Assembly: GCA_949300345.1 (NCBI GenBank)
Contig: CASGDR010000001.1
Coordinates: forward strand, 328,695-392,694
Direction: 5' to 3'
Length of the DNA stretch: 64,000 nucleotides
Origin: an uncultured bacterium
GTDB lineage: Bacteria; Bacillota_I; Bacilli_A; RFN20; CAG-826
The position numbers and the translations under genes are program-made. Below the pieces are notes generated by a model that was given only the letters and a program-made list of their open reading frames with translations, did not search any database and had not been told where the DNA came from. Of the stretch, positions 4,846 through 22,248 are shown piece by piece. Each line of letters opens with the position of its first letter. The first letter of the stretch is position 1.

Positions 4846-4884
4846 GAAAATAAAAATCCCGATTGAACCGGGCTTTTTAAGAAC

Positions 4885-4958
4885 TGGAGCATCTGGCGGG
4901 AATCGAACCCGTATAGCCAGCTTGGGAAGCTGGAGTTCTACCACTGAACTACAGATGC
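4885..4958 (-). tRNA. tRNA-Gly (anticodon CCC)
   Basis: Reverse complement gives GCATCTG TAGTTCAGTGGTAGAAC ... anticodon loop TTCCCAA ... GGGTTCGATTCCCGCCAGATGC-T-CCA. The 7-bp acceptor stem pairs perfectly and CCA is encoded. Confidence 0.8.
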
Positions 4959-7288: not shown

Positions 7289-7864
7289 ATGGGCAGCCTA
7301 TATATAGACGCTTCGGTCAGGGGAAAAGATTCAAGAACCCGCGCTTTGGCCGAGCAAATCAAAGGCCATCTCGGGGGAAACTGGGAAGAAATAAACCTCC
7401 GGGAACTGACCCTATTGCCTTTGAACGAAGAGAGATTGGCCAAGAAACAGGAACTCCTTTCAAAAAGCAAATACGATGATCCTTCCTTCGCCTTGGCTAG
7501 GCAGATCAAAGAGGCCGAAAGGGTCCTCATCATTGCCCCCTGCTATGACTATCTTTATCCGGCATTGCTCAAGCTATATATCGAAAACATCACCCATATG
7601 GGCATCACCTTCGATTACGATGAGCTGGGTAGGGCCAAGGGACTGACAAACATCCGGGAGGTCTTCTATGTGACCACCGCGGGAGGATATCTCGATGAGG
7701 ACATCGGCTATCTCAACATCAAAGCCGTCTTCAATGGCCTTTTCGGAGTCAAATCCATCCATCGCATAGCTGCCGAGGGGCTCGACCTCGTTGGTTGCGA
7801 TATCCCGGCCAAGCTGAAGCAAGCCCTACAAGAGTTCAAAAATCAAACCGAGGAGAAAAAATGA
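7289..7864 (+). CDS. flavodoxin-like-fold NAD(P)H-dependent FMN oxidoreductase (azoreductase / ACP phosphodiesterase family)
   Basis: N-terminus LYIDASVRGKDSRTRALAEQIKGHL matches the Gly/Ser-rich FMN-binding start of this family; about 190 aa. Confidence 0.55.
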   Translation: MGSLYIDASVRGKDSRTRALAEQIKGHLGGNWEEINLRELTLLPLNEERLAKKQELLSKSKYDDPSFALARQIKEAERVLIIAPCYDYLYPALLKLYIENITHMGITFDYDELGRAKGLTNIREVFYVTTAGGYLDEDIGYLNIKAVFNGLFGVKSIHRIAAEGLDLVGCDIPAKLKQALQEFKNQTEEKK

Positions 7865-8619
7865 AGATCGTAAGTTTCAATGTCAATGGCATCAGGGCCA
7901 TCCTCAAAAAGGACTTCCTAAAGGATTTCCAATACCTCAACGCCGACATTTTCTCGCTCAATGAGACCAAGTGGAGCGAGGAAAATAGCTTTCCCGTCGC
8001 CTTCGAGGGCTACAAGACGTATTTCACCAATTCCAAGGTCAAGAAAGGTTATTCGGGGGTAGCCGTCTTCACTAGGCTCGAACCCCTTTCGGTCCATTAT
8101 GGACTGGAAAACGGGGAATACGATGAAGAGGGGCGGATCATCACCCTGGAGTTTGAAAATTTCTACTATGTCGCCGCCTATGTCCCCAATGCCGGAGAGG
8201 AACTCAAACGCCTCCCCTTCCGCATGGAATACGAAGAAAGGCTCTCTTCATATCTGATCGGATTGGATAAGAAAAAACCGGTCATTTATGCCGGAGACCT
8301 CAATGTCGCCCATAATCCCATCGATCTGAAGAACCCGAAGTCCAACGAGGGCAATGCCGGCTACACCAAGGAAGAAAGGGAAGCCTTTACCAAATTGCTG
8401 GGGCACGGCTTCAGCGATGCCTTCCGTTACCTATATCCGGAAAAGGTTGTCTATTCTTGGTGGAGCTACCGCTTCCGGTCGAGGGAAAAAGGCATCGGTT
8501 GGAGAATCGACTATTTCGTCGTTTCTGACTGCCTCAAACCAAAAATCAAGGACTGCATTATCCATAACGAAGTCTATGGGTCTGACCACTGCCCCGTCTC
8601 GTTGGAGATTGATCTATGA
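7861..8619 (+). CDS. xth: exodeoxyribonuclease III
   Basis: MKIVSFNVNGIRA..., NETK, GDLNVAHNPIDL and the C-terminal SDHCPV: the EEP-family ExoIII signature. The ATG at 7861 overlaps the upstream stop. Confidence 0.85.
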   Translation: MKIVSFNVNGIRAILKKDFLKDFQYLNADIFSLNETKWSEENSFPVAFEGYKTYFTNSKVKKGYSGVAVFTRLEPLSVHYGLENGEYDEEGRIITLEFENFYYVAAYVPNAGEELKRLPFRMEYEERLSSYLIGLDKKKPVIYAGDLNVAHNPIDLKNPKSNEGNAGYTKEEREAFTKLLGHGFSDAFRYLYPEKVVYSWWSYRFRSREKGIGWRIDYFVVSDCLKPKIKDCIIHNEVYGSDHCPVSLEIDL

Positions 8620-10046
8620 TTGAAAGGATTTTCCATCTAAAAGAAAGCGGATCTACGGTGAAATCCGAGATAATCGGCGGCCTAATCACCTTCTTGTCCA
8701 TCATCTATATCCTCCCGGTGAACTCCGCGATCCTCTCTTCCATGGGCATGGACTCTGGAGGCATCTTCTTTGCCACGGCCCTAGTAAGCGGGGTCTGCTG
8801 CCTGCTCATGGGCTTTTTGGCCAACTACCCCATTGCCCTATCGGCGGGCATGGGCATGAATGCCTACCTGGCCTATAACGTCTGCGGGATCATGGGCTTC
8901 GGCTGGATCGAGACGATGATGCTGCTTACCCTCAACGGCGTCCTCTTCATAACCATCACCGCCACCCCCATCAGAAGCAAAATCGTCAATGGCATCCCCA
9001 AGGCCCTAAGCGCTGCCATCTGCATCGGACTGGGCGGCTTCATTGCCTTCGTCGGCCTTCAGAATGCCGGCATCGTGGTCGATGCCTCGACCTTGGTTAC
9101 CCTCGGCGACTTCTCCGATCCCGGAACCCTGCTTACCGTCTGCGGGATCCTTATGACCTTGGCCCTGATGTCCTTCAAGAGGTTTCCCAACATCGCCAAG
9201 ATGGCGGTCCCCATCGGACTGGTCCTCACCGGTATTATCGGAGTCATTTGCTCCGAAATCCTCACCGGCATCGGACGGGGAAATTTTGCATTGGATTCCG
9301 GCTTACCCATCGGTCCTTGGAGGGATGCCTCGGTCTATTGGGGCATCTCGGGCTTTGACAAGGTCGTCTTCTGGGGCAGCTTGGATCCGGCCAATGCCAA
9401 TCTTGATTACGGGGGACTGATCGCCGACATGTTCGCCAATCCCAACACCTACGTGGCCGTCTTTACCTTGATTTTCGTCAATATCTTCGACACCACGGCA
9501 ACCCTGGTCGCAGCCGGGAATACCTGTGGCCTGGTTGCCGAAGACGGGACCATCAAAAACGGCCGCCGGGTCATGATGGTCGACGCCACCGGAGCCCTCT
9601 TGGCCGGACCCATCGGTACCTCTACCGTCACCTCCTTTGCCGAGTCAGCCATCGGGGTATCCCTCGGGGCTAGGACCGGATTGATGGCCGTGGTGGTCGG
9701 CATCTGTTTCCTGCTCTCGGGGTTTGCCTTTCCGATTTTCTCCATCTTCTCCTACGCTTCGGTCTATTCAGTGGCCCTTGTGGCCGTCGGGATCATGATC
9801 ATGGCCAATAACCTGCCGACCCTAGCCAAATCCGACTTTGCCGCCCTCTTCTCGGGAGGCTTGACCTTACTGATGATGGTTTTGACCTATTCCCTCTCCA
9901 ACGGCATGGCCATCGGAATCATCGCCTATGTCTTAATGAAGATATTCGAAGGAAAGGGCAAGGAACTATCCTGGGTCGTATATCTGATGGCGGGCCTATT
10001 CTTCGTCTTCTTCCTCGTCGGGGCATTGACCAACCACCTCTCCTAG
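8616..10046 (+). CDS. pbuG: NCS2-family purine permease (guanine/hypoxanthine permease, PbuG/AzgA-like)
   Basis: 476 aa, 12-13 TM helices. N-terminus MIERIFHLKESGSTVKSEIIGGLITFLSI is typical of AzgA-type permeases. Translationally coupled to xth. Confidence 0.75.
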   Translation: MIERIFHLKESGSTVKSEIIGGLITFLSIIYILPVNSAILSSMGMDSGGIFFATALVSGVCCLLMGFLANYPIALSAGMGMNAYLAYNVCGIMGFGWIETMMLLTLNGVLFITITATPIRSKIVNGIPKALSAAICIGLGGFIAFVGLQNAGIVVDASTLVTLGDFSDPGTLLTVCGILMTLALMSFKRFPNIAKMAVPIGLVLTGIIGVICSEILTGIGRGNFALDSGLPIGPWRDASVYWGISGFDKVVFWGSLDPANANLDYGGLIADMFANPNTYVAVFTLIFVNIFDTTATLVAAGNTCGLVAEDGTIKNGRRVMMVDATGALLAGPIGTSTVTSFAESAIGVSLGARTGLMAVVVGICFLLSGFAFPIFSIFSYASVYSVALVAVGIMIMANNLPTLAKSDFAALFSGGLTLLMMVLTYSLSNGMAIGIIAYVLMKIFEGKGKELSWVVYLMAGLFFVFFLVGALTNHLS

Positions 10047-16693: not shown

Positions 16694-18022
16694 ATGTTCC
16701 AAAGGAAAATTACCGATAGTCTCTTAGCTTGGAGCAAAAGGCACAAACGTTTTCCTATTCTTTTAAAAGGATCGAGAGGTGTTGGAAAGACAGAAACAGT
16801 ATTGGAATTTTGTAAGTCACAGTATCCAAACGTTCTCTATTTCGACATGAATTCCAACGAATCTCTTAGGGATATATTCAATGGTGATATGGACATCGAC
16901 CGTATTGTCGACGCCCTTTCTTATTACGCTAAAGGACAACCTATAATCCCTGGGAAAACCGTCCTTATATTCGATGAAATCAAGGATTGTCCCAATGTTA
17001 GGACCTCATTCAAGTATTTTTCTTTGGATCGCCGTTATGATGTTATAGCTATTTCTTCTTTCTCTGGACTGGGAGCCTATGACAAAAACAACCAAGGTTT
17101 TGTCTCAGACTATCAGAAGGAAATGACAATGCATCCAATGGATTTCGAAGAATTCCTTTGGGCATCTTCAATCAACCCCAGACAAACAGAAAACCTACGT
17201 CTCTGCATGCAAAATGAAGAGCCTGTACCTGAATATCTCCATCAAGAAATGCTACGCCTCTATCGCATGTATATGTTAGTTGGGGGCATGCCGGAGGCCG
17301 TCGAAACCTTTATTCAAACCCGAGATCTTGATAGCGTCCTTGCCTATCAGAATAAGGTTCTAGACCAGCTTAGATCCGGGTTCGGATATAGGCTTTTGAA
17401 AGACGGAAAACCCAAACTTAATCCTTCATTCCAGCTGGCTACTACTTCCGTATTTGATTCAATCGATGCCAATTTATCCAAAACCTACGGTAAGTTTGGC
17501 TTCAAACAATTTGAATTTGACAATAGGACCGTCCATGAGGCCGTTACCTGGCTTTTGGACAGCATGGCCATCAATGTGTCTTACAATCTGCAATCCCTTG
17601 AAATACCTTTGGAAGACCAGAAACTACCCAAACTTTTCAAACTATATTTCCAAGATATCGGTCTATTCTCCTCAACTCTTAATGAGTTGCACAGGCAAGC
17701 TGTCTCAAGGGGAGATACTTACCACTCCGGAGTGTCTATTTTCGACCACGTGGTAAGCGATGCCTTTTCCAAATCCGGGAAGAATCTTTATTACTTCAGA
17801 AGACCTACCGGTTTGGAGATAGATTTCGTTGCTGAATACCAAGGCAAAACAACTCTGATACAGTCAAAACCAAGAAACGGCAATTACAAATCCCTAAGGA
17901 CCATCCTTGAAGACGGTAAGTATCAGGTAGATTCGGCCATAAGAATTGGGGAAAAGAACCTTGCAAGGAACGGAAAGATCCTAGATATACCTTATTACTT
18001 GGTCCCATTCCTTGCCTGCTGA
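16694..18022 (+). CDS. AAA+ ATPase (AAA_14 + DUF4143-type, COG1373-like)
   Basis: Walker A GSRGVGKTE, Walker B VLIFDEI, 442 aa. The gene and its 470-bp upstream region have clearly lower GC than the flanks. Confidence 0.65.
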   Translation: MFQRKITDSLLAWSKRHKRFPILLKGSRGVGKTETVLEFCKSQYPNVLYFDMNSNESLRDIFNGDMDIDRIVDALSYYAKGQPIIPGKTVLIFDEIKDCPNVRTSFKYFSLDRRYDVIAISSFSGLGAYDKNNQGFVSDYQKEMTMHPMDFEEFLWASSINPRQTENLRLCMQNEEPVPEYLHQEMLRLYRMYMLVGGMPEAVETFIQTRDLDSVLAYQNKVLDQLRSGFGYRLLKDGKPKLNPSFQLATTSVFDSIDANLSKTYGKFGFKQFEFDNRTVHEAVTWLLDSMAINVSYNLQSLEIPLEDQKLPKLFKLYFQDIGLFSSTLNELHRQAVSRGDTYHSGVSIFDHVVSDAFSKSGKNLYYFRRPTGLEIDFVAEYQGKTTLIQSKPRNGNYKSLRTILEDGKYQVDSAIRIGEKNLARNGKILDIPYYLVPFLAC

Positions 18023-18407: not shown

Positions 18408-18620
18408 TAATTGATTTCATTTATTCGACAACCAACAGTGTTTATAAAACCGGATCAATTACACCAATATAACATGCTTAAGGAGTAGATAGCCCGGTGA
18501 TGATCTTAAGCATAAAAATACCATCCAAACAAAGCGGCAGAGAAAATCTGCCAATACAAAGAAGGCAACCAAAATGAGGAATTTTGCCTAAAAGTAATGC
18601 CTGAATAATCTAACAAGAAA

Positions 18621-18668
18621 TAAAACCCCGAGACGATCGGGGCTTTTTGCATTTTGTGGTGACCCAGT
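18621..18668. repeat. degenerate copy of the tRNA-Glu 3' end plus its terminator (direct repeat of 20288..20335)
   Basis: aaaaccccgagacgatcggggctttttgcattttgtggtgacccag against aaaaccccgacacaatcggggcttttttcgatttggtgacccag: about 80% identity over about 45 nt. Similarity ends exactly inside the tRNA acceptor/T-arm sequence. Confidence 0.45.
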
Positions 18669-19766
18669 CGTGAGCAGTTAGAATACGAAACAATGGCAAT
18701 TCCAATGAGCAAAAAAGGGGTTAAACAACGCTTTTGGTATTGTTTTTGAGATTCTCGCATACTGGAAAGTCAATTTTTCGTACTCAAAGCCGCATTCCGG
18801 GAAAGGACATTGGCACAAGAAGACAAAGTTCATGCCGAATCATTAAATTAATTCCTTCTTTCCCTCTTGGACATAGCTGGATGAACCGCAGTGATGGGAA
18901 ATCAGGGACGAATATGGGCTGGTGCCCGGCTTGTTATAGTCTTTTTGGTTAACCTTTTTCTTAAAGAAAAAGGAATAACCTAGACTCTTTTGTAATGGTA
19001 TCCGTATTTTCTTATGGCCCATAAGGGCCGTAGATAAGATGGAACCTATAATTTCTGCGCCGGCTGGCGCAGCGATCTAAGGCATAGCAACCTCTGGCGA
19101 TTGCCCGCAACCCTTGGCAAAAGTATAAACAATTCAACCCGGCTGCAGTGTCTCCGGGCCGTGGCTTGAGGGAAACCCCACCGGGTCTATCTATGATAGT
19201 CTCCGCAACCAGGGCCGCAGGATGCGTAATAGGACTTGGGGGGACGCCCCTTGCCCCGGTACTTGGGTTCCGTTTTTTATTCGTCATCAAGCCATCTCAG
19301 CGCCCTGTCGATGGCTTTTTTGTTTACCAAGTGATTTGCTGAATAATCTATTTGGCTCAAATCTACATTCTCATGCGGATTTCCGTGCAGCCCGCTCGCC
19401 CTTGGCAAATCGCAATCCTTGTCCTTCTTTGGGGTTTGGGTTTTTAGACAATTTTACGTAATTTTTTCCCAGTCTCTTTTTTGCTTTGCAGACCATCTGT
19501 AATAATCCTTTGGTCTATGGGTAATGACATAACCAGTGGCATCCTTTCTTTTATTGCGCATCATAATCGCTGGATCTCTTGCTTTTTTATGGAATCTAAT
19601 CTTTTTCTTCATATCTTGACCTTACTTTAAATAAATGCGACTATTTGTTTACCGACCGGTGTCGAACCGCCCGAAAGGGGGGATCCGGCGGTGTTTTTTG
19701 TTACTCCCGATAGAAGTGTGGACAGGTGGAAAGCGGCCGTTCCGCACAAGAATAGACAGACCCTTT

Positions 19767-20099
19767 TTATTCCCTTAGATAAAACATCGTCCCTAACGGG
19801 CCGGTCCTGGCTAGTAGCCTATCGGTTCCATAGCGAAGGCACTCCCATGCCTCCCCTCCCTCGAAATCGATGGCCACGAAACCCGAGTCTTCTCTATAGC
19901 TGAAAGACTTGCGCGGCTCCCCGCTGATGCCGAGGGAACCGTCCGTATTCGAAAAGGAAAGGGTTTCCGAAGAGGAAACCCATGTCGTGCCCGCTACGGA
20001 TTCGACCGACCTATTGAAAACGTTGGCCTTTGCCATCAGAAGAAAGGCAGCCGCAACTGCCGAGGAAATTACGATGGCCACCTTGGCGGCAAGGTTCAT
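19767..20099 (-). CDS. hypothetical small secreted protein (doubtful)
   Basis: 110-aa ORF with a signal-peptide-like N-terminus MNLAAKVAIVISSAVAAAFLLMAKA. It sits inside the repeat-bounded, hairpin-rich region. Could be spurious. Confidence 0.25.
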   Translation of the reverse strand: MNLAAKVAIVISSAVAAAFLLMAKANVFNRSVESVAGTTWVSSSETLSFSNTDGSLGISGEPRKSFSYREDSGFVAIDFEGGEAWECLRYGTDRLLARTGPLGTMFYLRE

Positions 20100-20287
20100 G
20101 GGTCGTTTCCTTCCTTTCCGTTGTAGTTATCCCTTTTGTTTTGCTCTTTCAACAGTTCCCTCAAGGAGACGTTAGATACCTATAGTCATTTAATTAAAGG
20201 ACATGGGAAATCGGTCTCGGAGACGATTTCGAAGGCTGTTTTCCCCACAAAAGACACCTAACCTGTCCTCAAAACTGTCCTCAAAAA

Positions 20288-20320
20288 ACGAAAACCCCGA
20301 CACAATCGGGGCTTTTTTCG
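20288..20320 (-). terminator. rho-independent terminator downstream of tRNA-Glu (bidirectional hairpin)
   Basis: GCCCCGA-ttgtg-TCGGGGT stem with T-runs on both strands. Confidence 0.5.
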
Positions 20321-20322
20321 AT

Positions 20323-20398
20323 TTGGTGACCCAGCCGGGAATCGAACCCGGGATTCAACCTTGAGAGGGTTGCGTCTTAGCCGCTTGACCACAGGGCC
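20323..20398 (-). tRNA. tRNA-Glu (anticodon CTC)
   Basis: Reverse complement gives GGCCCTGTGGTCAAGCGGCTAAGACGCAACCCTCTCAAGGTTG ... CCGGGTTCGATTCCCGGCTGGGTC-A-CCA. Anticodon loop CTCTCAA; one acceptor mismatch. Confidence 0.7.
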
Positions 20399-20419
20399 GC
20401 GCAGGCTATTAAAGCACCT

Positions 20420-22066
20420 TTAGAAAGGCTCTTCAAGCCGAATCGTGGTCCGATCCTTGCCTAAGATGGAAATAACCTCAAAGAGGTTGGGCGAATTGCG
20501 GCTCCCGGTGATGGCGACCCTGAGAAGGCTAGCGGCATCAGCCATATTGCCTTTGAAGGAATCGGGGTTGGCCTTATATTCCTTGTTGGCGATGGCAAAG
20601 CCTTCTTTGGCAGCTATTTCCTTCACGGAATTCCACCAGGTGGCTTCGTCCTCATAGGACATACCATCTGATACCTTCTTCAGGAAGGACTTGATGAAAT
20701 CGCGGTCGAACTTCTCATCATAAGGCAGTCCGCCTTCCTTGATCTTTAGGAATTCATCATCATAGAAGAAGCGGGTCGAAGCCTCGATATCCGAATATTT
20801 GGCATAGTCTTTGCGGGGATTCTGCCTTTCTTTTTCAATATCCAAGACCTTGGAGAAATAGATGGGATCTCGGTTGATTTTCTCCAGCAAAGTGGGCGAA
20901 TAGGAACTGGCCCAGGCTTTGACCTTCTCAACTAGGGGCATGCCCTTTTCCTTGGCCAAGACCTCTTTGGAGAAGTAATTGAGCTTATCCAAATCAAACA
21001 ACGCTCCATCCAAGGACATCTTGGAGAAGGAGAACGGGAACTTGTCGAGGTCATAGCCATTTTCGAATGACCATTCCTCGAAGTTGGAGTTGGCAATCGA
21101 CATCAGATATACCAAAACCGCATGTTCTGGATAACCCTGCTCCATGAAGTAACCGACCGAGGCTTCGGGATCCTTTCGTTTGGAAAGCTTCCTCTTGTTG
21201 CCGTGGTCGAGCTTCATGATGACCGGGAGATGGGCGTATCTAGGCGGCTGCCAGCCAAAATCCTTGAATAGCTGCAGATGGATGGGGGTCGAAGGAATCC
21301 ACTCCTCGCCCCTGGACACCACTGTCGTTCCCATCAGATGGTCGTCCATGACGTGGGCAAAATGATAGGTTGGCAAACCGTCCCTTTTAAGGATGACGAT
21401 GTCCATGCCGTTATCCTGGAGTTCGATATGTCCCCTGATGAGGTCATCGAAAGAGGTCTTTTGGTTGGGATCGCCCAAGGATTTGTAGCGGATGACATAA
21501 GGTTCTCCAGACTTGACCCGGGCCTCAACTTCCTCAAGCGGGAGGTTGCGGTCCCTGGCATAGACGCCATAGTAGCCGGGAAGCACCTTGTTCTCTTCCT
21601 GGACTTTCTTGATGGCGGCCAAATCCTCGGGGGTGGCGAAATCGACATAGGCTCTTCCCCTTTCAAGCAAATGCTTGACCCCGATCTTATAAATGTTTTC
21701 CCTCAATGACTGACGGTAGGGCCCATACTCACCTTTATCGCCCTCGGGGTAATAGCCCTCGTCAGGGACGATGCCGAAGGAAAGCAGTTGGGAGACGAGT
21801 TCCCTATCGCTTCCTTCGATGGTTCTTTTGGTATCGGTGTCTTCAAGGCGGAAGATATAGACTCCATCCGTGCTTTTGGCCAGCACATGGGCAATCATCG
21901 CGGTAAAGAGGCTTCCGGTATGCAAAAAGCCGGTCGGAGAGGGGGCAAAGCGGCTAACGACCGCACCCCCTTTGAGCTGCCTTTTCGGGTACTTGGCGAG
22001 CAGTTGCTCAAGGCTGGTAGTGACCTCTGGCAGCAGGAGGTCGGCAATGGTTTTGTAGTCTGGCAT
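20420..22066 (-). CDS. gltX: glutamate--tRNA ligase
   Basis: HIGH motif RFAPSPTGFLHTG, KMSKS motif KLSKRK; 548 aa including a C-terminal anticodon-binding extension. Confidence 0.85.
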   Translation of the reverse strand: MPDYKTIADLLLPEVTTSLEQLLAKYPKRQLKGGAVVSRFAPSPTGFLHTGSLFTAMIAHVLAKSTDGVYIFRLEDTDTKRTIEGSDRELVSQLLSFGIVPDEGYYPEGDKGEYGPYRQSLRENIYKIGVKHLLERGRAYVDFATPEDLAAIKKVQEENKVLPGYYGVYARDRNLPLEEVEARVKSGEPYVIRYKSLGDPNQKTSFDDLIRGHIELQDNGMDIVILKRDGLPTYHFAHVMDDHLMGTTVVSRGEEWIPSTPIHLQLFKDFGWQPPRYAHLPVIMKLDHGNKRKLSKRKDPEASVGYFMEQGYPEHAVLVYLMSIANSNFEEWSFENGYDLDKFPFSFSKMSLDGALFDLDKLNYFSKEVLAKEKGMPLVEKVKAWASSYSPTLLEKINRDPIYFSKVLDIEKERQNPRKDYAKYSDIEASTRFFYDDEFLKIKEGGLPYDEKFDRDFIKSFLKKVSDGMSYEDEATWWNSVKEIAAKEGFAIANKEYKANPDSFKGNMADAASLLRVAITGSRNSPNLFEVISILGKDRTTIRLEEPF

Positions 22067-22162
22067 GGTTTTCCGAGCACTATTCTAACGAAGAGCACTA
22101 CCCAAAACCATCTTGATTGCAAACTTGAGGGTGTTTATAATGGCGAAGCCCTTCGGGGCAAT

Positions 22163-22236
22163 GCAAGTGTAGTTCAATGGTAGAACATTACCTTGCCAAG
22201 GTAAATACGCGGGTCCGATTCCCGTCACTTGCTCCA
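22163..22236 (+). tRNA. tRNA-Gly (anticodon GCC)
   Basis: GCAAGTGTAGTTCAATGGTAGAACATTACCTTGCCAAGGTAAAT ... GGGTCCGATTCCCGTCACTTGC-T-CCA. Perfect acceptor stem, CCA encoded. Confidence 0.8.
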
Positions 22237-22248
22237 CTTGGCACTCTC

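Follow-up and report, generated by a model that had tools for sequence, protein, structure and literature searches.

Why does a 1.65-kb stretch of DNA lacking any long gene lie behind the glutamate tRNA gene tRNA-Glu(CTC) of an uncultured bacterium of the Bacilli, and why is it bracketed by two copies of the tRNA 3' end and its terminator? The locus is situated in a 64,000-nucleotide stretch of contig CASGDR010000001.1 (assembly GCA_949300345.1), here called the window as a whole; positions given without a contig name are those of the window. We concluded with high confidence that the 1.65 kb is the leftover of a >30-kb island which carried a tyrosine integrase, had inserted into the 3' end of tRNA-Glu(CTC), and was reduced by two internal deletions. 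Three alleles were found at this tRNA site among conspecifics, namely an intact island, an empty site, and the remnant, and the window maps onto the intact island; the decayed tRNA-targeted integration scar proposed in the initial annotation is thus supported.

The repeat itself was recovered by blastn within the 64-kb window as a direct match of 52 nt between 18622-18673 and 20291-20340 (82.7% identity, E 3e-8), in good agreement with the approximately 45 nt at 80% described before. A repeat search divided it into a 42-nt part (18615-18656 versus 20284-20325, 81%) and a 17-nt part (18657-18673 versus 20324-20340, 88%), which are offset by a 2-nt indel. It consists of a terminator hairpin and the last 17 nt of tRNA-Glu(CTC); the similarity does enter the tRNA, as had been claimed, but it reaches 17 nt instead of about 12, eleven of them exact in the window. 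Both hairpins scored as intrinsic terminators on the tRNA strand in a terminator scan. The hairpin motif AAAACCCCGANACNATCGGGGCTTTTT has window copies at the two repeat sites only (0 of 100 shuffles), and the 17-mer TCCCGGCTGGGTCACCA, allowing up to three mismatches, was likewise confined to these two sites in the window (expected number 0.22; one of 100 shuffles reached two). The genes next to the repeat are as follows.

20324-20398, minus strand: tRNA-Glu(CTC), intact (ARAGORN; Rfam tRNA, 59.7 bits).
20420-22066, minus strand: gltX (PF00749), the cognate synthetase gene, which ends 21 nt upstream of tRNA-Glu, so that the tRNA does lie immediately downstream of gltX.

A tRNA-Gly(GCC) gene divergent from gltX, followed by tRNA-Glu(CTC), was observed in the window (20324-22236) and also in contigs L001 (9831-11751) and L002 (9852-11723) of relatives whose GltX proteins are only 77% and 53% identical. 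Since the order is conserved at such distances, the position of tRNA-Glu directly behind its synthetase gene is ancient and has remained stable in this Bacilli lineage.

Could the repeat have arisen by something other than integration, either as a decayed tandem duplicate of tRNA-Glu or as a member of a recurrent terminator family? Loosely similar terminators do follow other tRNAs in the window (20285-20350 versus 4847-4911, 72.7%), but the hairpin motif is restricted to the two repeat sites and the similarity takes in the 17-nt tRNA end. In addition, some conspecific alleles carry an island, and in others the distal copy directly follows the tRNA. The three alleles refute this explanation, and we give it practically no chance.

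The locus was resolved via contigs encoding P0001, the sole homologue cluster (95% identity) in a 5.8-billion-protein collection of a 110-amino acid open reading frame (ORF) located between the repeats. The conspecific set was defined by one GltX cluster, which was approximately 99% identical to the GltX of the window, the next relatives being at 77%. An exact look-up of the window GltX matched no record, and that of the window GNAT protein, encoded beyond the distal repeat copy, returned remnant-type contigs only. Species-representative genomes were considered as an empty-site control and rejected as too distant: their closest GltX is 77% identical and the gene content downstream of tRNA-Glu differs. 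A scan of JGI metagenomes with a 19-mer of the attR/attB junction (att, attachment site) was also discarded, as it yielded one chance match on a contig without a tRNA that looked eukaryotic by eye. The comparison with related genomes that the initial annotation had suggested did reveal presence/absence polymorphism at the tRNA within the species.

The left part of the intact island was seen in contigs L006 (ENA ERZ16268169), L026, and L014, which come from three samples. In L006, gltX and tRNA-Glu (173-247) are followed by a convergent gene for a 378-amino acid tyrosine integrase (310-1446; PF14659 and PF00589; phrog_1, E 3e-56), 63 nt from the tRNA. Genes for two HTH regulators and for a replication-initiator-like protein (phrog_270) come next. 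They are followed by several genes without known function, one of which, a 595-amino acid gene, overlaps with its stop the start of the 110-amino acid ORF, and then by genes of 112 and 127 amino acids and an HTH gene. The distal portion holds a type I restriction-modification system, which includes additional copies of hsdS and a 266-amino acid recombinase, and, beyond it, a CoiA-like gene. The right end was found on L017, a contig that shares its sample with L006. It has genes for McrBC, an OLD/AriA-like ATPase, a second integrase that is split, and Rep_trans, an HTH gene, and genes of 643 and 151 amino acids. Beyond these lie a non-coding stretch of approximately 600 nt, the 17-nt core in perfect form, a native-type terminator, and genes for a GNAT protein and a DUF4143 ATPase. 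The last two are those that flank the window repeat. In the two other samples, L019 and L020 show this right end as well, with island genes, a perfect core, the native terminator, and GNAT in succession. The left part spans at least 20 kb and the right part at least 9.7 kb; the intact island is >30 kb.

The empty site was found in contigs L023 (ERZ16268191) and L024, in which the tRNA 3' end joins the attR-type flank directly, without the island. Their sequence reads ...GGTTCGATTCCCGGCTGGGTCACCA, with the tRNA ending in ...CCCGGCTGGGTCACCA, directly followed by CAAAATGCAAAAAGCCCCGATTGT, and the joined flank corresponds to the window sequence from 18657 to 18630. L023 and L024 encode the same GltX protein as L022, a contig that bears the remnant. 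L018, the GNAT contig of the empty-site allele, was assembled from the sample that also yielded L023, and the two contigs are not joined.

The alignment of the attachment sites indicated which repeat copy is native. attB (L023), attL (L006 and the window), and the intact-island attR (L017) all have the same 17-nt core, TCCCGGCTGGGTCACCA. On the 3' side of the core, attB and attR share the spacer CAAAATGC and the hairpin GCCCCGATTGTCTCGGGG, whereas attL has AATCGAAAA, the hairpin GCCCCGATTGTGTCGGGG, and then the integrase gene. This argues that the copy at 18622-18673 is the native tRNA flank and that the copy at 20291-20340 was brought by the island, as judged from the aligned sequences. The terminator that now serves tRNA-Glu is of foreign origin. 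The junction of the circular island, attP, is predicted to be ...TTCTAACTGC-TCCCGGCTGGGTCACCA-AATCGAAAAAAGCCCC....

We next asked how the window DNA between the repeats relates to the intact island. It aligned to three separate island pieces at 95-99% identity.

20570 to 20152: L006 1-419, 99%; the end of gltX, the tRNA, the island-type terminator, two tandem 12-nt repeats, and the last 36 integrase codons.
20164 to 19414: L006 9936-10688, 96.7%; the tail of the 595-amino acid gene, the 110-amino acid ORF, and the first approximately 60 codons of the 112-amino acid gene.
19433 to 16320: L017 8957-12070, 94.8%; the last approximately 48 codons of the 151-amino acid gene, the 600-nt non-coding arm, attR, and the chromosomal flank.

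From the tRNA outwards, the remnant contains the following features.

20324-20340, minus strand: attL core, identical to the last 17 nt of tRNA-Glu.
20291-20317, minus strand: island-borne replacement terminator hairpin (terminator scan), within a segment 99% identical to L006 beside the integrase and different from the native flank in L023; it lies in the integrase-side arm of the recombination site, immediately 3' of tRNA-Glu.
20260-20283, no strand: two tandem 12-nt repeats, AACCTGTCCTCA and AAACTGTCCTCA, between the integrase stop codon and the terminator, also present in L006.
20152-20261, plus strand: integrase relic, the last 36 codons of the 378-amino acid tyrosine integrase (BLASTP, 33 of 36 residues identical to L006 residues 343-378).
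20152-20164, no strand: deletion junction 1 (overlapping blastn segments; three-way comparison).
20096-20164, minus strand: tail, approximately 23 codons, of the island 595-amino acid gene (blastn to L006; L006 gene calls).
19767-20099, minus strand: intact 110-amino acid ORF (95% homologue P0001 inside the intact island).
19428-19612, minus strand: relic of the island 112-amino acid gene, its first approximately 62 codons (translation versus L006 10488-10826), frameshifted after codon 50 in the window.
19421-19427, no strand: deletion junction 2 (three-way comparison; overlapping blastn segments).
19277-19420, minus strand: C-terminal approximately 48 codons of the last island gene, of 151 amino acids (blastn to L017; translation).
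18674-19276, no strand: non-coding right arm with several hairpins, 96.0% identical to L017 9114-9717.
18657-18673, minus strand: attR core TCACGACTGGGTCACCA, matching at 15 of 17 positions; degenerate in the window through two substitutions and perfect in the intact island.
18622-18656, minus strand: native tRNA-Glu flank, consisting of the spacer CAAAATGC and the original terminator hairpin, which directly follows the tRNA in L023 and L024 and is here displaced 1.65 kb from it.

The integrase relic corrects the earlier statement that the bracketed DNA contains no integrase. It includes a TYSH motif, whose tyrosine is the putative catalytic residue typical of tyrosine recombinases. The tandem 12-nt repeats are candidate arm-type integrase binding sites, and no further copy was found near attR. 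As the initial annotation had noted, no ORF longer than 110 amino acids is present between the repeats. Pfam and PHROG scans of the ten ORFs in this interval (18674-20290) gave no significant match.

Both junctions carry short direct repeats. At junction 1, a 13-nt microhomology (12 of 13 positions) is formed by TTGAGGGAACTGT at L006 407-419 and TTGAGGAAACTGT at L006 9936-9948, and approximately 9.5 kb was lost between them. At junction 2, the 7-nt microhomology GAAGGAC joins L006 at about 10681 to L017 at about 8964, with a loss of at least 18 kb. The reading frames at these sites are truncated; together with the short direct repeats, this indicates that the short form was derived from the long form by two deletions, which could have occurred by slippage or microhomology-mediated joining. 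The reverse order would require a small att-flanked non-autonomous element that later gained the integrase and cargo by insertions. The short form was indeed the more frequent one, with six assemblies against three samples for the long form. However, the gene fragments in the window make sense only as truncations: the integrase has its last 36 codons, the 595-amino acid gene its tail, and the frameshifted 112-amino acid gene is fused to the C-terminus of the 151-amino acid gene. Furthermore, each junction coincides with a short direct repeat of which the long form has two copies, as is characteristic of deletion. An ancestral short form is therefore highly improbable.

The 1.65-kb remnant occurs, besides the window, in five other assemblies (L009/L015, L010/L016, L011, L012/L022, and L013), where it is collinear and 99.5-100% identical, and was thus inherited as such; ERZ16268197 and ERZ16268293 are among the samples that bear it. 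Its anatomy, the family of the integrase, and the surroundings of the nearest relatives of that integrase point to tyrosine-recombinase integration at a tRNA 3' end. Those nearest relatives share 46% identity in the 5.8-billion-protein collection, and the clade is small, with 14 clusters at ≥38% identity. The integrase gene of the nearest one is convergent to the 3' end of tRNA-Phe(GAA), 77 nt away, so that the clade appears to target tRNA 3' ends. In contigs L027-L031 (for example, L027 3001-4360), from another organism, the nearest integrases were observed convergent to a tRNA-Phe(GAA)/tRNA-Asp(GTC) pair.

Based on these results, we propose the following course of events. The island would insert by site-specific recombination at the 3' end of tRNA-Glu(CTC) through the common core TCCCGGCTGGGTCACCA; the activity of the integrase and the position of the crossover at the core are predicted. 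Because the island attachment site carries a copy of the tRNA 3' end and a near-identical terminator, the tRNA would be left intact with a terminator after insertion, and the native 3' flank with its own terminator would be pushed to the far end of the island (18622-18673). Two deletions between short direct repeats, one of 13 nt with one mismatch and the other of 7 nt, would then have removed >28 kb, and with it the regulators, the replication gene, the defence cargo, and the integrase gene except for its tail. The 1.65 kb left over comprises attL with the 36-codon integrase tail, a 750-bp interior with the intact 110-amino acid gene and the frameshifted stub, and the 750-bp right end with attR. 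No recombinase is left, although both att sites were kept, and the remnant should therefore be unable to move or excise by itself.

Might it nevertheless still work in cis? A related integrase brought by an incoming island could recombine attL and attR, or docking could take place at attL, and the remnant would be excised or taken along; it would then be a live landing pad and not a dead scar. Both att sites are kept and attL is perfect, and the species and the sample series also contain intact islands that encode the cognate integrase. Cis-mobilisable elements (CIMEs) are defined by this property, and tandem transfer of a CIME with an integrative and conjugative element (ICE) has been reported (PMC5704250). 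On the other hand, the attR core of the window matches at 15 of 17 positions versus a perfect attR in the intact island, no tandem of remnant and island was seen in the assemblies examined, and the remnant is invariant across six assemblies. We consider this possibility rather unlikely.

Several points weigh against the derivation of the remnant from a single decayed island. The assemblies are metagenomic, and contigs of the same sample were linked by inference; the island was never found on one contig, its left and right parts being on separate contigs that co-occur in sample ERZ16268169 and again in ERZ16268052. The unseen gap between the contigs could hold a further att site, and the parts would then belong to two elements in tandem. 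A second tyrosine integrase on L017 (3220-4028, minus strand) is split into ORFs of 63 and 206 amino acids, and the ancestor may thus be a composite of two accreted elements. The empty sites are not pristine either: their terminator loop carries a different insertion, at which the contigs break. A third copy of the core, as expected for tandem elements or an older boundary, was not found in L006, L017, or the window.

The insertion in the empty sites was observed at L023 11764-11866, at the 3' end of L024, and at L018 1-100, with approximately 100 nt of each end visible. It has the imperfect terminal inverted repeats GAAcTGAACCCaAT and GAAgTGAACCCcAT, possibly with a TGT duplication, and the contigs end at this point, as they would at a multi-copy insertion sequence. 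No similar sequence was found in the window. At another site, L023 has approximately 2 kb of extra DNA (7804-9828) adjoining the 3' end of tRNA-Gly(GCC) (22218-22238 in the window). Approximately 21 nt of window sequence stand on both sides of it, and it encodes proteins of 506 and 71 amino acids, for which no precomputed Pfam match exists; no integrase was present in this DNA. It may be a second small tRNA-associated insertion.

The initial annotation had also envisaged the whole segment from 16.2 to 20.3 kb as an insert and had regarded the ORFs of the bracketed DNA as probably spurious. The former was not supported, since the GNAT and DUF4143 ATPase genes are outside attR in the intact-island and remnant alleles, the two in which this side was visible. 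The DUF4143/AAA_14 ATPase gene just outside attR (16694-18022, plus strand) matches the PADLOC candidate defence family PDC-S01 (E 3e-107), the GC content at 16.4-18.8 kb is 0.35-0.44 versus approximately 0.50, and the relative with L001 (GltX 77%) has no DUF4143/AAA_14 ATPase, GNAT, 100-amino acid ORF, or hydrolase gene. The 16.4-18.8 kb region may have been acquired earlier at this hotspot, but the search for additional att copies found none.

As for the ORFs, the small signal-peptide ORF of 110 amino acids is a real, island-derived gene. It has an N-terminal hydrophobic signal-like segment and no Pfam or PHROG family. Between the window and L006 (10001-10333), it shows one synonymous and five non-synonymous changes; the non-synonymous share is 10 of 11 between the window and L014 (9668-10000) and 5 of 5 between L006 and L014. 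These changes hint at relaxed or diversifying selection, even among intact islands, in counts too small for a test. The approximately 600 nt of the right arm contain no long ORF in the intact island (L017) either, and the 96% identity between the remnant and the island in this arm equals the level of the flanking chromosomal genes. Rfam searches of the window region and the intact right arm, at gathering and permissive thresholds, found only the tRNA. A structured RNA in the arm was considered and set aside, as folding z-scores of -1.3, -2.7, and -1.6 are marginally better than those of shuffled sequence and too weak to claim it. The arm may hold recombination-accessory sites or an unrecognised transcript; nothing demands either. 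That the remnant is kept and not merely tolerated, because the 110-amino acid secreted-type gene or the arm is functional or because the attL/attR pair is a reusable docking site recruiting defence islands to gltX-tRNA-Glu, seems improbable to us.

What kind of element was the island? A prophage origin was examined and is not supported. PHROG scans of 27 island proteins recognised no phage structural or packaging genes in the approximately 30 kb of island; the matches were to the integrase, HTH regulators, replication initiators, and weakly to Ig-domain-type families (E 1e-5 to 5e-4), the last confined to one protein of 356 amino acids. A distant blastn search of 18600-20340 against phage and plasmid collections gave no match, and no relative of the island integrase was found in IMG/VR. 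The decay of an integrated element by deletion, with att sites and a few gene fragments left, is shared with defective prophage remnants, from which the locus differs in the lack of those phage genes. Coupling protein or type IV secretion genes were not seen in the same 30 kb, the gap between the contigs being unseen. The Rep_trans protein adjoining the split integrase (L017 4234-5370, minus strand) has a weak MobT-relaxase match (E 1.7e-5, 23.8 bits versus a cut-off of 600). In the type I restriction-modification system of L006 (11528-19169), several hsdS genes and fragments were observed to flank the 266-amino acid tyrosine recombinase, a layout typical of phase-variable specificity shufflons.

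Islands and prophages that target tRNA genes with tyrosine integrases enter at the 3' end of the gene, which is made whole again by sequence from the attachment site of the element. Examples at tRNA-Lys of Streptococcus agalactiae are the integrative and mobilisable element (IME) IME_Sag2603_tRNAlys and ICEs (PMC5704250). As in such elements, the integrase of the present island lies beside the tRNA 3' end in convergent orientation, this end is part of the direct repeat, the tRNA is intact after insertion, presence or absence varies within the species, and the cargo includes defence genes. The differences are that the target is tRNA-Glu(CTC) beside gltX in an uncultured Bacilli lineage, that imperfect similarity extends approximately 40 nt beyond the tRNA and spans the whole terminator hairpin, and that the integrase is at most 46% identical to any other in the 5.8-billion-protein collection.

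Decayed derivatives of ICEs and IMEs in Firmicutes that keep attL and attR without integration and transfer genes are known as CIMEs (Guedon et al. 2017, PMC5704250). The remnant is a CIME-like decayed element. Like a CIME, it has attL and attR at the 3' end of its target gene (attL perfect, the attR core at 15 of 17 with its flank kept), lacks a functional integrase or transfer gene apart from the 36-codon integrase tail, and derives by internal deletion from a larger integrase-bearing element, at a site used by intact relatives. It differs from a CIME in that its parent is only putatively conjugative or mobilisable, the weak MobT match of Rep_trans being the sole relaxase-like signal, and in that its attR core has decayed and cis-mobilisation is only putative.

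The remnant is an ordinary, well-understood genome scar that reflects the standard behaviour of tRNA-targeting islands; it is a textbook-style example and involves no new mechanism. It explains the gene-poor 1.65-kb stretch and allows the integrase stub and two other fragments to be annotated as pseudogene pieces, and both deletion junctions were resolved to the nucleotide. One uncultured Bacilli species thereby shows all three states of an integration site: empty, occupied by a >30-kb defence-gene island, and decayed.

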